Positions 2,597-61,810 of a stretch of 64,000 nucleotides of DNA are shown in pieces. How positions within the stretch are numbered: position 1 is the stretch's first letter; the number at the start of each line of letters is the position of its first letter. The notes under the pieces were generated by a model. It worked only from the letters and a program-made list of their open reading frames with translations, was not told the DNA's origin and did no database searches. Source of the DNA: Eledone cirrhosa (lineage: Eukaryota); NCBI GenBank assembly GCA_964016885.1, contig OZ024759.1:19220001-19284000 (forward strand), read 5' to 3'. Both the position numbers and the translations under genes were made by a program.

Positions 2597-4320
2597 TCTT
2601 TTACTCTTTTACCTGTTTCAGCCATCCGGCTGAGGCCATGCTGGGGCACCGCCCTTGTTGCTACACATTTTATCTCCAGCCTGTATAGGTTGGCCACTGG
2701 TGTAGGAGGGAGTTTGTTGCTGCTGCCCTTAGGTTTCCCTCGTGTCTTGCTGTGGGCTCATCCGGGATCCTGGATAACAAGGTGTCGAGATGTTTCTTAA
2801 AGACATCCACCTCCACGTCATGCAAGTCTCGCAGATGCCTCGGCAGCCTGTTGAAGAGTTGAGGGCCCTTGAATCCCAGGCTATTGCAATACCTGCTCCT
2901 TATTCTAGATGTGGAAGACGGGACCTTTGGCACCACACAGTGACGTCCTGTTCGACGGTTGGTCCAGCTCCCAATGCCAAAGTTTGGTGCTAGTCCCTCC
3001 AGGATTTTCCACATGTAGATCACTGCGTATCTCTCCCGTCTTCGCTCCAAGGAGTAGAGGTTCAGTTCCTTCAGCCTCTCCCAGTAGCTTGTCTCCCTCA
3101 TCTTGGCAATCCTCTTGGTGTAGCTTCGCTGGATTGCTTCGAGCTCTGTGGTTAGTTTGACACTATGGGGTGACCACAGCTGGGAGCAGTAGTCCAGGCG
3201 GCTTAGGACAAAAGTCCTCCACAGTGTCAACATGGTGTCTCGATCTCTTGTAAGGAAAGTCCTCAAGATCCAGCCAGCGAATCGTCTACATGCTGTCGCC
3301 ACCTTCATGATGTGTGAAGAAAAAGATGCATCATCGCTCATGTCTATGCCCAGGTCTCGTATCGATTTTGACACGGGGATATCGGTCCCTCCTGGTCCTG
3401 TGTAGCTGTGTTCCGCTATATTTGTGTTTGTGTTTGCAGGTTTGTATTGTAGGGCTTGGAATTTGCCAGCATTAAACTGCATGTTGTTTTCTTCCGCCCA
3501 TCTGTATATGGCATCCAGATCCTGCTGTAAGAGGGCAGCGTCAGCCGGGTTTTTGATTGCTTGTGCTACCTTAGTGTCATCAGCATAGCTAGTGAGGGAT
3601 GTTGTTGCATGCACCACAGAGGGCATGTCCGAGAGAGCCACCAAAAACAGTAGTGGTCCCAGGACTGTCCCCTGAGGCACCCCACTTGTTATCGGTGTTT
3701 CCCTCGAGAGGGCCCCATTTGCTGCGACTGCCTGGCTTCTGTCCCTTAGGAAGCCATGCAGCCACTCACCTACTTTTCCAGTTATGCCGAGTCCGTGTAG
3801 TTTGTGACATATCATTCCGTGGTCGACCTTGTCAAAGGCCTTCGCAAAGTCAAGATATATCACGTCTACATGTGAGCTGTCTAGTAGTTGTCTCAGTACC
3901 CAGTCGTAGTGATGTAGCATCTGTGTAAGGCAGCTTCTTCCTGGGCGGAAGCCATGTTGCGTGCTAGTCAGGCGGTCATTTTCTTCGAGGAAAGTGATTA
4001 GTTTCTTTCTGACGACTCGCTCCATGACCTTACTGATATGCGACGTCAGGGAGACTGGCCTATAGTTCTTGGCCTCCGCTCTACTACCTCCTTTATGGAT
4101 AGGGCATATTGTGCCTTCTTTCAGCTCCCTGGGTAGTACACCGCTAGCCAAGGAGCTTCTGAAGAGCATCTTCAGTGGAGTTGCTAAGGCCCGCTTACAT
4201 ATTTTTAGGAGAACTGCTGGGAATCCATCAGGTCCAGCAGCCGAGTCTGTTCTAATTTCATCAATGGCGTACACCACATCCTCCTCCGTTATGTCTATGT
4301 GGTTGATGGTTGCCATTTCT
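2597..4320 (-). mobile_element. CR1-group LINE copy inserted within (TA)n, including 3' UTR
   Basis: The 3' UTR (minus) has hairpin CAGCC-GGAT-GGCTG followed by (GTAAAAGA)2 short repeats. TA microsatellite lies on both sides. Confidence 0.88.
2670..4316 (-). CDS. Reverse transcriptase (ORF2 C-terminal part) of a 5'-truncated CR1-group LINE
   Basis: Uninterrupted 548-aa frame with [49 protein letters not shown] and YADD, plus the CR1-type C-terminus [25 protein letters not shown]. The endonuclease is missing, so the listed Met is probably internal. Confidence 0.93.
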
Positions 4321-6262: not shown

Positions 6263-6307
6263 AGTCATAGTTCTTTCGTCACACACTCTGTGACCTCTTC
6301 AGTGACT
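6263..6307 (-). ncRNA. Minimal type-I hammerhead ribozyme (family A)
   Basis: Minus strand: AGTCA-CTGAAGA-G-GTCACA-GAGTG-TGTGAC-GAA-AGAACT-A^TGACT. Stem I AGTCA/TGACT and stem II GTCACA/TGTGAC are perfect; the cleavage triplet is CUA. Confidence 0.8.
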
Positions 6308-7082: not shown

Positions 7083-7262
7083 ATATATATATAGTCTATC
7101 AAAATTCTTTCGTCACACACCTGTGACATCATCAGTGGTACTATTATGTTTCCTCATGATGTATTGTAATGTCTACGCCATAGACATTACGATACAACGG
7201 GAGGAAACATAATGGTACCACTGATGATGTCACAGGTGTGTGACGAAAGAATTTTGATAGAC

Positions 7263-12832: not shown

Positions 12833-13415
12833 ATACTTGGGGAGGGTCAGGGTCATATTTGTGTAATAATATTGCTAGAATTAATAACAGAACACACTCA
12901 CTGTTTGGTTGGTTTTCGCTTCTGTATCTTTTATATCGGTTAATTTGATTTACTCGGTCCTCAACGTCACCATTGACTGACCAACGGTCAAAAATACAGA
13001 TATAATATAGACACAAACACATATATATAGTCTAACAAAGTTCTTTCGTTGCACATCTGCAACATCGTCAGTGGTGCTAATATGTTTCCTCTTGGCGTAG
13101 ACATACAATACACCACTGTTCTTTTGTTGCAGATGTGCAGCGAAAGAAGTTTGTTAGACCATATATATGTGTTTGTGTCTATATTATATCTTTATTTTTG
13201 ACCGTTGGTCAGTCAATGGTAACATTGAGGACCGAGTAAATTAAATTAACTGATATAAAAGATACAGAAGCGAAAACCAATCAAACAGTGAGTGTGTTCT
13301 ATTATTAATTCTGGCAATATTATTACACAAATATGACCCTTCCTAAGTATAACAATATTTGTTTCGACACACGATTTCATATCAAAAGCCTCGCAAAACT
13401 AATTCATCGCCGTTA
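12831..13415. mobile_element. Family A element as a long inverted repeat, with a hammerhead core at 13032-13076 (-)
   Basis: Arms ~12831-13063 and ~13125-13352. Minus strand reads CTGACGA-T-GTTGCA-GATG-TGCAAC-GAAAGAACTT. Confidence 0.8.
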
Positions 13416-20269: not shown

Positions 20270-20602
20270 GGTAGAGGCGTTGAATCGGCAGATAGAATGC
20301 TTTGTAGTATTTATTTTAGCTCGCTGCTCTTTGAGTTCAAATCCTGTCGAGGTCAACTTTGCCTTTCATCCATTCATGGTCGATAAAAAAATGTACCAGT
20401 TAAGTACCGGGGTCGATTATCCCTCTATATCTCTTTCTCACTTCCTTTCTCTCCCTCTCTCTCTCTATCCTTCTCTGGAGGAAGTCTACTGTATTCAGCC
20501 CTGGAGAGGAGATGGACTCCGCCAGGTTTAAAGAAAAAGTGCCCTAGAAACGCCGTATGTCAATATGGCGCCCCTATGACTCCTCTGGAGTTACGGGTCC
20601 GT
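20268..20602 (+). mobile_element. SINE subfamily with the same head/core but a longer alternative 3' tail
   Basis: The core is followed by a CT-rich tract, then CTCTGGAAGAAATCTGCTGTATTCAG...CCCTAGAAACGCCGTATGTCAATATGGCGCCCCT...TTACGGGTCC. Also at ~24150-24450, 24500-24875, 26160-26640, 27060-27375 (-) and 35266-35680, 39453-39765, 43955-44352 (+). Confidence 0.75.
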
Positions 20603-20607
20603 GCATA

Positions 20608-20658
<51 letters not shown>

Positions 20659-20936
20659 AGTTAATATAAATTAATATATATGATAAAACACAAATACCAA
20701 CATATAAGTGTTTGTATTGTAAATGACTAAGTTAGCTAGATTGAAAAATACTAATTATAATAATACAGTTTGCCTGTCTTTACAATACAAACACTTATAT
20801 GTTGGTATTTGTGTTTTATCATATATATTAATTTATATTAACTTGTATTACACGGCTCAGAAATACTTCTTTCTTTGAGCTATTTCATTGTAAAGGACTG
20901 CTTGAGTTTAGAACTCATTATTCTTAGTATATATAA

Positions 20937-21170
20937 GGGCGGTGGATTGGCAGTATCGGTAGAGGGTCGGACGCCATGTTAGGGCGGTGGATTGGCAGTA
21001 TCGGTAGAGGGTCGGACGCCATGCTTTCCAGCATAGTTACGTCCCTTTACGATCTGAGTTCAAATCCCGCCGAGGTTGACTTTGCCTTTCATCCTTACAG
21101 GGTCGATAAAATAAAGTACCAGTAATGAACTGGGTAATTGCTGGCCTTGTGCCTAAAGTAGAAACAATTA
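20937..21170 (+). mobile_element. tRNA-derived SINE (dominant family) with duplicated head and target-site duplication
   Basis: A box TGGCAGTATCGG, B box GTTCAAATCC, central GCCTTTCATCCTTACGGGGTCGATAAAATAAAGTACCAG and tail GGCCTTGTGCCTAAAGTAGAAACAATT. TSD TATTCTTAGTATATATA at 20919 and 21169. Further copies lie at approximately 5515, 15430, 19935, 21300, 26650, 26851, 31280, 31537, 33062, 35697, 43135, 43433, 43755, 47130, 51510, 52207-52960, 54226, 57371, 63478 and 63670. Confidence 0.92.
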
Positions 21171-21630
21171 TTCTTAGTATATATATATATATATCCGGGG
21201 AGTGCAACGCGAAGTTACTGTAGGTTCACCCGGATGAGCACTCCATGTTTAGGTTCACGTCAGTCTCGAGGTGTAGAGCTAGACAGAGTGTAGTATAATA
21301 ATTGTTTCTACTTTTTGGCACAAGGCCAGCAAATACCCAGTGCATTACTGGTACTTTATTTTATCGACCCCCGTAAGGATGAAAGGCAAAGTTAACCTCG
21401 GCGGGATTTGAACTCAGAATGGCAAGGGCCGTAACTCTATGCGTCAAATCATGGCGTCCGACCCTCTACCGATACTGCCAATATAATAATACAAGGGCGA
21501 ATGGTTACTCCTTCATTAGATTTATTGGTTGGTGACGCGCGTTTCGCTACTGATCAGCTCAAGGTTCGATCTCTATCGACCTGGCCCGACTCTGGAATCA
21601 AAAGCCCTTTTGTTCAACACTGTCAAAGGA

Positions 21631-21673
21631 ACGATGTACTAGTTTCAAGCTTATTAGCTATCGTCAGCACCGT
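21631..21673 (-). ncRNA. Type-I hammerhead ribozyme, inverted copy
   Basis: Reverse complement is identical to 22222-22264. Confidence 0.85.
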
Positions 21674-22221
21674 ATACCTTCCTGTCAGATGGTTGAACGT
21701 CTGAAAGTATATACTTTCCTTATGAATATTAACGGCTGAGCAGCCTAATTTGCATATCGAGTGAGTTAATCGGCTGGGCGCACCGAAAACGATAAACGAT
21801 AAATTAATAAGCTTGAAACTAGTTCATCGTTCCTTTGTCAGTGTTGAACAAACGAGCAACGATGGTTGCTAAACACTGTACAGCTTAATTCGGGATTTTT
21901 GTTTACAAACACACCGAGCATTATAATAAATGTTCGGTAAATCCATACGTACATATATATATATGTGTGCATGTATGTATATATATATATATATATATAC
22001 ATACGTCTGTATACATATATGTATGTACGTATACATACTTATATTTAAGTAACAGCCGTACTAAGAGTGAGAAATGAAATTTGGTTTCATTTTTTCCGTT
22101 TATCGTTTTCGGTGCGCCCGGCCGATTAACTCACTCGATATGCAAATTAGGCTGCTCAGCCGTTAATATGCATAAGGAAAGTATATACTTTCAGACGTTC
22201 AACCATCTGGCAGGAAGGTAT

Positions 22222-22264
22222 ACGGTGCTGACGATAGCTAATAAGCTTGAAACTAGTACATCGT
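22222..22264 (+). ncRNA. Minimal type-I hammerhead ribozyme
   Basis: ACGGTG-CTGACGA-T-AGCT-AATA-AGCT-T-GAA-ACTAGT-A^CATCGT. It has a 6-bp stem I (one G.U), a 4-bp stem II, palindromic helix III ACTAGT and a GUA cleavage triplet. Confidence 0.87.
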
Positions 22265-22642
22265 TTCTTTGTCAGTGTTGAACAAAAGGGCAAGATGGTT
22301 GCTAAACACTGTACGGCTTAATTCTGGATGTTTGTTTACAAACACACCGAGCATTATAATAAATGTTCTGTAAATCCATACGTACATATATATATGTGTG
22401 CATGTATGTATATATATATACATACGTCTGTATACATATATGTATGTACGTATACATACTTATATTTAAGTAACAGCCGTACTAAGAGTGAGAAATGAAA
22501 TTTCGTTTCATTTTTTCCGTTTATCGTTTTCGGTGCGCCCGGCCGATTAACTCACTCGATATGCAAATTAGGCTGCTCAGCCGTTAATATGCATAAGGAA
22601 AGTATATACTTTCAGACGTTCAACCATCTGGCAGGAAGGTAT

Positions 22643-22685
22643 ACGGTGCTGACGATAGCTAATAAGCTTGAAACTAGTACATCGT
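22643..22685 (+). ncRNA. Minimal type-I hammerhead ribozyme, next tandem unit
   Basis: Identical to 22222-22264, 421 bp downstream. Confidence 0.87.
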
Positions 22686-25420
22686 TTCTTTGTCAGTGTT
22701 GAACAAAAGGGCAAGATGGTTGCTAAACACTGTACGGCTTAATTCGGGATGTTTGTTTACAAACACACCGAGCATTATAATAAATGTTCTGTAAATCCAT
22801 ACGTACATATATATATATGTGTGCATGTATGTATATATATATACATACGTCTGTATACATATATGTATGTACGTATACATACTTATATTTAAGTAACAGC
22901 TGTACTAAGAGTGAGAAATGAAATTTCGTTTCATTTTTTCCGGTTTATATATATATATATATCATATGTAAACTGGTCACATTTTATCTTGATTCTGTTT
23001 TAGTCAAGCAATGAAAATTGCCTTCAGATTGCTCAAGATTTTCCCTGACTTATCGCCCTGTTCATTCAAGCAATGAGGATAATTGTAAAGATACAGAAAT
23101 AAACAACGCTGCTTGGTCAGTGTGGGCCTCCATCACTTTTGGCGATGAGTAAACCAATCGATTCGTTCAACGGATCAGCCCCCTCGTGAAATTAACGTAT
23201 AATGGCCTTGGGCTAGGCTGGTCTCACTGGGGGATCCAGCCGGATCAATTAGAGACGGTTGCTTGACAGGACCTCCTTCCACGAGGTCTTAAGAAGTCTG
23301 CCCCCTACCCACGACCCACCCCCAGGAATAAGTGGGCGAATAAGCCGAAGAACAAGTAGTGGTTGAGCATAGAATTCTAAAAACGTGTGAGCTGTTAATG
23401 AAGTTATTTCTAAAAGAATGTGTGTGTGACAAAGCTGACCCTTTGAACTTCATATACATTTCGTTGGGGGGGGGGCGTTCCATCTCAGTGTACTTGAGAA
23501 ACATGAAATAAAGTGTATTACTCAAGAACACTTTGCTCCACTAGGTATCGAACTCACAATCGTAAGCTGAACACCCTAACCAGTGAGTTACGCACCCCTA
23601 CATCTAATCAGTATATTAGACATATTTATTGTTGTTCGTTATAAATTTATTTAATATCGGTGAGTTTTATTTAATATTTGTCTTATAAAATAATTATTTA
23701 GTTGTGTAATTATTCCCCAAATGATACATAATTATCTATTAAAATATAATTATTGCGTAATTATTATATAATTACCAAATGCACATTACATAATTAGTTG
23801 TTCATTTGTTGGCTTAAGAATTTGGAGAAGTAAAAATAAAGATAATTATATGTATTTCCGTGGAAATCTCCTAGCCGTTTCCTGTTATCATCTTAGCGGA
23901 GTCATCTAAACAAGACACCTTATTTACTTTCCAGATTAATCAACCTATCTTTGAACTGCTTTCCAGAGTTGAGTTGTCGTGTAGAATGAAAAGCACGTGT
24001 AGATTCTTCGTTTTCCCCAGTAATAGAATCGAAACAGTGTCTCTTTAGAATTGGCATTTCGTATGAAATATATTTATAGATAAGTCAAAAGAAACATTTC
24101 GGTATTTACTTTACACTACATACAGCGTTCCTGAGACACTTTAAACCTGACGGAACACGCCCCCTCTCCATTATTCTGAGCACGGCCGATTTCTTCCAGA
24201 GAGAGAGTGAGTGTGTATGTTAGAGAGGAGGTTGGATAGAGATGGAGAGAAAATAAAAGGGCGACGAAGTGACAAAGATATATAGAAGAAAAGTTGGACC
24301 CAATACTGGGCTAGTAATCTTTTTTTAAATCGACCTCGAAAGGACGAAGGGCAAAGTTGACCTCGGTGGGATTTGAACTCAGATCACAGAGAGGCGGAAC
24401 GAAAACCACAAAGTATTATGTACGACCTTCTAACGACTTTGCCAATTACCTTTTATTCACACACAAATTTGTTATTTACTTTGCATGTATGGTCTCGGGA
24501 TTCCTGATTGAGTAGTATTGACATACGGCGTTTCTAGGGTATTTTAAAACCTGGTGGAGCCCATCCTTCTTATAGATTTTATAAATAAATTATCCTTGAT
24601 AAACGTTGAATTGTGTATAGTATAGCTTTGACCAACTAGCATTAATCTAGCGGAACCTATCACCTCTCCAGGTCTGAACACAGCAGATTTCTTTCAGAGA
24701 AAGCTAGAGAGTGAGAGAATAGATAAGAATCGGCCCCAGTACTTGACTGGTACTTTTTTTTTATCGACCCCGAATGGCTGAAAGACAAAGTTGACCTCGG
24801 CGGGATTTGAACTCAGAGAGCCGAAAGGAATACCACAAAACATTCTATCTAACGTTATAAAGATACTGCCAATTCTCCGTCTCGTATTTACTTTACACAA
24901 CTCAACATCGAGCAGTCAAATCTTTACACAAGAAATCTCAACTGAATAGATAAATATTTATACATCTTCTGCAATAGTACTGTAGGAAGAATGACTTGAA
25001 CTTTAGAAATCCCCAGTTACTGTTTATTGTATAATCAGCTTTTATTCAAGTCCCCGTCCAAAAGAATAGAGTTTCCTACAATGAAAATATTTTAGAAATT
25101 CATTGCTGGAGCTTACAATAATATTTATTTCGGGAATTAGAACCTAGATCCAGTACTCGGTTCAATGGAAGTTCTAAATGATATTTTTAAAATCGTGATG
25201 AATTGTTAAATTTTCAAAAATTTAGAATAACATTCTCAAGCAATTAAGATGACAATACTCATCAAATATTGCCATTGATGGATCGATCGATCGATTTGTC
25301 TGTTTTTGTATGATAACCACAATGACAACAAAAACGGCTGCCATAAATAAACTAAACATTTCCCCCATAACATTAAATTATTCTGCCACCAATTAAATCT
25401 GTTATGGCATATATATATAA

Positions 25421-61700: not shown

Positions 61701-61810
61701 ATAGATGAGATTCTACAGGACTTGAACTGTTTCATTCTTCAGAAATCATCAGGAATCCTGATGATTTCTGAAGAATGAAACAGTTCTAGTCCTGTAGAAT
61801 CTCATCTATA
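61701..61810. mobile_element. Palindrome whose arms start at a hammerhead-like core
   Basis: Axis at ~61755. Each arm begins TCCTGATGA-T-TTC-TGAA-GAA-T-GAAAC; the 5' strand of stem I is absent. Confidence 0.6.

Follow-up and report, generated by a model that had tools for sequence, protein, structure and literature searches.

A hammerhead-bearing 421-bp repeat family of Eledone cirrhosa with Penelope-type insertion ends, a probable non-LTR retrozyme

The stretch of DNA analyzed here (the window: 64,000 nucleotides of Eledone cirrhosa contig OZ024759.1) contains a short tandem array with hammerhead motifs, and the question it raises is what kind of element the array represents and how it came to lie at its present site. 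The locus is best explained, with good confidence, as the insertion of a non-LTR retrozyme that was copied in trans, into an (AT)n tract, by the reverse transcriptase (RT) and endonuclease of a Penelope-like element (PLE). At the level of sequence, the family has the characters of a non-LTR retrozyme, its hammerhead being a predicted one. The original prediction was partly supported as a whole; its central proposal, a retrozyme-like element with PLE-type integration, was borne out by the dispersal of the copies and the Penelope signature of their ends.

The proposed 421-bp tandem array was confirmed both from the sequence and by TRF (21805-22948; period 421, 2.7 copies, 96%), and its right end runs into (AT)n, as had been noted. 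The array itself stood, with its limits corrected from 21602..22942 to 21604-22948. Its features are collected in Table 1, in which unit positions are counted from window position 22104 (position 1), the core occupying positions 125-155 and the predicted cut following position 155.

Table 1. Features of the insertion, in window coordinates.
Feature	Position	Strand
Whole head-to-head insertion: 200-bp inverted arm and 2.7 direct units	21604..22948	.
Inverted arm, unit positions 410-421 then 1-188	21604..21803	-
Hammerhead copy of the inverted arm, helix I to helix I	21631..21673	-
First direct unit, 5'-truncated (starts at position 136, inside stem II), without CUGANGA	21805..22103	+
Complete 421-bp unit, numbered from its natural 3' end; 36% G+C, non-coding	22104..22524	+
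Type-I hammerhead with predicted extended helix I (22197-22218 with 22266-22283)	22197..22283	+
Sole predicted cut-to-cut 421-nt monomer of the window	22259..22679	+
10-bp hairpin; compensatory changes in the sister subfamily	22346..22371	+
Self-complementary AT/GT microsatellite-like stretch; TTATAT at its end is the short 3' end site (position 362)	22376..22465	+
Optional 59-nt tail with hairpin, between both 3' end sites; ends in TTTAT (position 421)	22466..22524	+
Second direct hammerhead, predicted cut after 22679	22643..22685	+
Terminal tail: long (421) end of the window insertion	22889..22948	+
(AT)n target adjoining the 3' end	22947..22963	+

The inverted partial unit expected upstream was present with its third hammerhead, and this arm is 97% complementary to 22092-22291. 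Its outer end, at position 188, is atypical and shows a 2-nt GC overlap with a different repeat, itself the 5'-truncated end of another PLE-like repeat; at this joint, either the other repeat was inserted, deleting the end of the arm, or the RT switched template. Of 20 diagnostic sites, 3 set the first direct unit apart from units 2-3, and the window array is a subfamily mosaic. No target-site duplication was visible in the flanks of the insertion. The non-coding nature of the array was upheld, as the longest Met-ORF across two units measured 68 aa. A 30-codon ORF spanning the unit junction was rejected, its frame being broken by indels in relatives, and so was an intron over the microsatellite (GT..AG), whose AG is lost in other subfamilies; no GT..AG joint across the microsatellite occurred among the matches listed in assembled contigs of unrecorded kind.

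A hammerhead pattern search of the window gave 14 matches against 0.42 expected, most of them from other families. In the array, the cores lie at 22228-22258 and 22649-22679 on the plus strand, with type-I hammerheads in two consecutive units (22228 and 22649), and at 21637-21667 on the minus strand. Helix I (ACGGTG/CATCGT) starts at 22222 and 22643, and the cuts are predicted after 22258 and 22679, all as originally proposed. A complete hammerhead in each full unit had also been claimed, and this was correct for those at 22222 and 22643; the first direct unit lacks CUGANGA, so that the window has a single cut-to-cut monomer. The core nucleotides C3-A9, G12-A14, A15.1-U16.1 and H17 are present together with helices I and II, and helix III is indeed palindromic (ACUAGU, 6 nt). 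The term minimal did not hold, however: next to helix I of 6 bp, helix II of 4 bp and the 6-nt helix III palindrome, an extended helix I is predicted. The base of helix II is a U10.1·U11.1 mismatch, leaving 10.1-11.1 unpaired; it is fixed in the family (163/164 segments), and further hammerhead families of the same genome have it too.

A check against the Rfam hammerhead model, suggested in the original prediction, gave no match within 20500-24000 at E<=5, the only hits being AT-repeat miRNA matches under gathering scores, and the hammerhead stretch alone folded no better than its shuffles (z -0.25 to -0.80). The hammerhead was taken as real because of its core motif, its conservation and its covariation. 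Across 61 loci chosen independently of the core, variation amounted to 3.1% at invariant core positions versus 14.8% in the flanks, with 4/24 variable columns in the core versus 38/77 in the flanks (p=0.005). RNAalifold recovered helices I and II (48 of 54 diversity-picked copies). Among 164 segments, the pair 122:158 was kept as U·G (80), G·U (40) or A-U (32), and it remained paired in 33/35 among held-out loci. On a tree built without those columns, with rough support values, this pair changed several separate times, G·U being spread over separate clades and U·G confined to a single clade. The expected constraint on the hammerhead among genomic copies was thereby found. The 36-pair structure comprising the extended helix I and the hairpin 243-268 was 95.7% paired; two-sided cells numbered 32 versus 9.7 in shuffles (0 of 500), while neither the pairs with two-sided change (6 versus 4.1; 60 of 500) nor the number of pair types (118 of 500) rose above shuffles, all these covariation counts being inflated by related copies.

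Helix III requires a dimer (predicted -6.8 kcal/mol), in which pairing of helix I is predicted at only 0.10-0.40. Since this helix is weak in the model and U10.1·U11.1 is fixed, the activity of the ribozyme may be low. Natural U10.1-U11.1 hammerheads are described in PMC3088659, where this mispair is said to be the most active of the mispairs and the variant is reported as partly active; here the same mismatch is fixed in a family of >10,000 cores. Poor cleavage in vitro is reported for PLE-type hammerheads in the text of PMC4209133, and in a recent preprint 8/9 Xenopus retrozyme dimers are given as uncleaved in vitro (Li, Clavereau and Pollet 2026, bioRxiv 10.64898/2026.07.22.740005). The cut base is seldom G, with 17 G versus 80 U in the first 100 non-A copies listed. 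The circular monomer gave a folding z of -7.75, a value inflated by the AT hairpin; with this hairpin removed, both strands scored alike (-4.2, -4.3), and folding z therefore cannot fix the strand.

The genome-wide check likewise supported a dispersed, high-copy family: the exact 33-nt core occurs 10,581 times in the 3.0-Gb genome, and its reversed control 0 times. A 321-bp query returned 1,342 candidates; scoring 40 of these yielded 43 matches, and all but two of the matches were near full length at 95-100% (41/43). In one of four assembled contig sets of unrecorded kind the variants stood in other proportions than in the deep run; this set was left out of the evidence, as were small shares in two other organisms. 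The census comprised 79 loci on C1 in chromosome order, drawn from 100 core places listed of 10,581, and in every case the hammerhead sat in a non-coding unit. The longest same-strand run of cores was 1 in 67/79 loci, 2 in 8, 3 in 3 and 5 in 1, giving at least two tandem hammerheads in 12/79, and head-to-head cores were found in 21/79. The anatomy was that of the unit only, with no LTR, in 30+79 loci. A sister subfamily is about 80% identical and has a unit of 460-470 bp. Hammerheads sharing helix III were considered as relatives or parent and proved to be point mutants plus two unrelated palindromes.

The ends of the copies were the most informative feature. Copies are either 5'-truncated or head-to-head, and their 3' ends fall not at the predicted cut but at two fixed sites beyond it, one about 207 nt and the other about 266 nt away, with 59 nt between them. 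After removal of duplicates, 182 unit ends in 105 loci were classified: 58 lay at 421, 55 at about 362 and 44 continued, the remainder falling in the microsatellite (15), in the tail (8) or at the locus edge (2). Both sites end in TTTAT or TTATAT, and (AT)3 followed directly in 45/58 ends at 421 and 34/55 at 362 (79/113). For the 421 site, exact junctions genome-wide numbered 1,849 into ATAT and 2,041 into the next unit.

Pairing of the two ends was strict in head-to-head insertions. Among 32 of them, 24 combined a short with a long end (362+421), none had two alike and 8 had an unclassed end; the 6 found in 27 held-out loci comprised 4 short+long, 0 alike and 2 unclassed. All 28 main-family insertions with both ends classed were therefore short+long (28/28, p=7e-9). 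In the sister subfamily (20 loci), 3 were mixed and 1 was scored short+short, with one end beyond the scored span and the tail present on one arm. The rule is the optional one-sided tail of PLEs: autonomous PLEs, as described in PMC3846280 and PMC8557442, carry such a tail together with a pLTR and an inverted 5' copy, and in the anole PLE the tail results from RT starting at two internal sites that lie downstream of the hammerhead (PMC11167929). Taken together, the end pairing, the core constraint and the combination of fixed 3' with variable 5' ends point to retrotransposition, and since the ends match PLE ends, the element is likely a small parasite of PLEs.

Which PLE would serve as helper was approached through a search for an autonomous parent. 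At least six PLE families, judged by GIY-YIG motifs, are present in the genome, and the unit sequence was found in none of 48+46 PLE-picked loci of >10,000 candidates, barring separate unit insertions. PLE protein fragments occurred in 11/79 census loci, none of them as an adjoining ORF by coordinates, and no RT/GIY-YIG ORF was found in or joined to the unit in the census loci or the window. The original prediction had allowed that the unit might be the pLTR of a known Penelope family; no ORF-bearing parent appeared in the loci searched. Penelope/Poseidon-type elements and a second PLE family, seeded from the window, were tried as parents with none found. The same was true of the GIY-YIG loci, and widely spaced junctions led to satellites. 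Neptune-type ORFs of 844-1096 aa exist in the genome, the clade label being our assumption from the GIY-YIG motif; a protein search for the clade gave no useful result. In one Neptune-type family the hammerhead shares the U·U base and likewise has a palindromic helix III of 6 nt, and the ends are at (AT)n; a family of this kind is a plausible helper.

Two other readings of the family bear on these observations. The copies could be truncated pLTR ends of an unsampled autonomous Penelope-like family, which we consider improbable. Their ends are exactly as in PLE insertions, most genomic PLE hammerheads occupy truncated copies according to the text of PMC4209133, and the parent search spanned 94 PLE-picked loci only. 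Against this, the sequence upstream of 122 core-bearing segments was another unit, not an ORF, in 65; the others showed an inversion (31) or truncation into unrelated flanks (26), with no foreign sequence common to these non-unit joints. The 2,041 exact unit-to-unit junctions are equally at odds with it, and the best-supported loose-end motifs, followed as a lead to a parent in a DNA run, gave the sister subfamily in one case and nothing in another. The family could also be a satellite grown by local duplication or recombination, with a hammerhead motif that is fortuitous or dead; this is very hard to maintain. Satellite arrays of 20-40 or more units with higher-order repeats do exist, a few arrays have near-identical neighbour units, and the Rfam scan found no hammerhead. 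However, 67/79 loci are dispersed sites with a single hammerhead per strand, and the fixed 3' ends, variable 5' ends, end-pairing rule and core constraint all stand against it. For the dispersed copies this reading is largely refuted, and satellite-type recombination remains true for the growth of long arrays.

With retrotransposition of a retrozyme as the preferred reading, the nature of the RNA template had to be considered. A cut linear monomer could yield at most positions 156-421, and the copies run through the cut site. Arms starting within 150-162 were seen in 0/75 junction-crossing and 1/177 of all arms, these counts coming from loci picked by an intact core, in which core-less copies are invisible. 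As 5' ends are not piled at the cut, the template was either a ligated circle or an uncut multimer. Units diverged by 3.7% within direct (52 pairs) and 4.6% within inverted (49 pairs) arrangements of one insertion, versus 8.1% between loci. At most one diagnostic difference was found in 39/52 direct and 36/49 inverted pairs versus 1,671/17,102 between loci, within-array pairs not being independent. Such sharing of subfamily type fits one template per insertion.

The chances that an RNA circle served as template are about even. A circle would account for selection acting on the core as well as for the way multimers are renewed. The evidence did not clearly support a ligation scar: some 5% of copies are non-A at the cut base, mostly U, and such bases are often common within arrays. 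The alternative keeps the same parasite and the same PLE-type enzyme and takes as template an uncut linear multimer transcribed from source arrays, with no circle needed; the hammerhead would then cut rarely, or act as a protein-binding or 5'-trimming fold. We regard this as possible though rather unlikely. In its favor, 10/52 direct pairs from 6 loci, the window included, have at least three diagnostic differences, and for this reason these mosaic arrays did not come from one circle. The long satellite arrays are possible sources, and the U·U closing helix II and the weak predicted helix I fit rare cutting. The anole PLE, moreover, mainly used unprocessed RNA as its substrate, and cleavage was dispensable for its insertion in vitro (PMC11167929). 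On the other hand, most insertions are homogeneous in type despite high diversity between loci, the catalytic core and helix III are constrained, with the cut base seldom G, and 5' truncation would shorten arrays in each round unless multimers were regenerated. In the most specific version of the preferred reading, the hammerhead makes the RNA circle, and a PLE enzyme acting as a dimer copies it, its two active sites always starting at different fixed points, one per nicked strand, so that one end is strictly short and the other long; this version is put forward tentatively and falls short of an even chance.

The retrozyme insertion could have proceeded as follows. Arrays with two or more hammerheads would be transcribed by read-through, and two hammerheads would pair via the ACUAGU palindrome and then cut. 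The monomer would be ligated to a circle, with about an equal chance that an uncut multimer serves as template instead. A PLE protein, most likely Neptune-type, would nick both strands of an (AT)n tract, and reverse transcription would begin at internal points of the RNA, 421 for one strand and 362 for the second, the match of TTTAT/TTATAT to the target presumably helping the RT to start. The RT would then continue beyond the hammerhead, copying one unit or several. Mosaics may arise from occasional template switches or nested insertions, and unequal crossing-over may later convert some copies to satellites.

Both the class and the PLE link are already published, and the Eledone cirrhosa family is, by its sequence, a new member of the animal non-LTR retrozymes. 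A search of the literature on octopus or cephalopod hammerheads, retrozymes and Penelope, in sources other than Repbase, Dfam, subscription journals and supplements, yielded no description of the family. Mussel units are given as 350-390 bp, and circles as shown in coral, mussel and axolotl, in the text of PMC7229834 (Cervera and de la Pena 2020). Animal retrozymes are argued to be non-autonomous PLE sequences in the 2026 preprint, which covers 35 species, with no mollusc among the classes named in its text. Mobilization by PLEs has been argued from co-occurrence and pLTR similarity; in the preprint its mechanism is presented as unresolved, and plain local amplification is allowed too. Like the retrozymes so described, the present family has a non-coding tandem unit that is short and low in GC; helix III of its type-I hammerhead is palindromic, its copies number thousands and range from monomers to long arrays, and PLEs co-occur with it. 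It differs from them in its slightly longer unit (421-470 bp), U10.1·U11.1 and an internal AT-rich hairpin; their cleavage and circles are reported as demonstrated, whereas this family is known from sequence alone. Two fixed RT starts and a one-tail rule on a retrozyme do not appear in the accessible text of PMC7229834 or bioRxiv 10.64898/2026.07.22.740005.

With endonuclease-bearing PLEs, as far as PMC3846280, PMC8557442 and PMC11167929 describe them, the family shares partial tandems, head-to-head inversions, a tail at one end, ends downstream of the hammerhead cut and AT-rich targets. In contrast to those elements, it lacks an RT/GIY-YIG ORF, and its tail measures 59 nt against their 30-40. 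Unlike in anole PAc, whose start is not homologous to the cut DNA (PMC11167929), the ends of the 421-bp unit match the target (TTTAT/TTATAT). MRC1 of Chlamydomonas is likewise non-coding, head-to-tail multicopy and PLE-dependent; derivatives of that type, according to the text of PMC8557442, have a 3' end similar to that of an autonomous family, and most of their clade lacks hammerheads, whereas here no parent was found and the hammerhead is kept.

What is new is that the footprint of Penelope integration has been quantified for a retrozyme: the insertion ends themselves carry it, in a family that is large and young and has no ORF. Any account of how the two target strands are primed has to produce the strict short+long pairing, and the compact unit could serve as a substrate in PLE biochemistry, including tests of circular versus linear templates. 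If a hammerhead-made circle is indeed copied from two fixed starts, the 421-nt RNA would be a natural minimal substrate carrying both start sites and working although no surviving helper has sequence in common with it, and it would allow a direct test of whether PLEs carry out rolling-circle reverse transcription.

The predicted cut of the 421-bp unit lies after unit position 155 (window 22258), and a base other than A was found there in 518 exact hammerhead cores. The first 100 of these listed comprised 80 with U, 17 with G and 3 with C; the cleavable U was thus more common than the transition to G.

The 5' ends of the arms of the insertions were also considered relative to the core. Unit positions 119–128 (window 22222–22231), directly upstream of the core or at its start, contained 10 of the 177 arm 5' ends and 7 of the 75 belonging to junction-crossing arms. 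The pattern looks as if reverse transcriptase had stalled at helix I; the choice of loci by an intact core may contribute to it.

Both the unit and its sister subfamily form satellite arrays, observed at L184, L185, L189, L190, L192 and L193 and at G000:C3:12.27–12.29 Mb; some of the arrays have higher-order repeats (e.g., a 1,713-bp 4-mer).

Other features of the window are listed in the table.

Reverse transcriptase, endonuclease and hammerhead features in the window
Feature	Window position	Strand	Remarks
LINE RT fragment	2670–4250	−	
Additional hammerhead families	6268–6302, 7102–7254, 13038–13071, 54407–54608, 55370–55403, 61724–61786		Motif pattern search
PLE-like repeat	21195–21605	−	Abundant; 2,701 candidates
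Penelope/Poseidon-type RT fragment	45562–46347	+	
PLE GIY-YIG domain fragment	49092–49196	+	
Predicted hammerhead, autonomous Neptune-type PLE family	50424–50452	+	Also L231, L240

The repeat resembling Penelope-like elements (PLEs), here split by a SINE, adjoins the left arm of the 421-bp element. It has (AT)n ends and inversions, and its hammerhead-like core deviates from the consensus. The hammerhead of the autonomous family, presumably of the Neptune clade judging by its GIY-YIG motif, has a U·U base of helix II and a palindromic helix III; about 190 nt further on, the sequence ends in (AT)n.

The additional hammerhead families number at least three, three of them forming inverted pairs, and are likely truncated PLE ends. 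A second tandem hammerhead family, with a period of 310, was found at L114 (G000:C1:20778944–20782944); its stem II begins with U·U, its helix III reads ACGCGU, and it is a candidate for another retrozyme.
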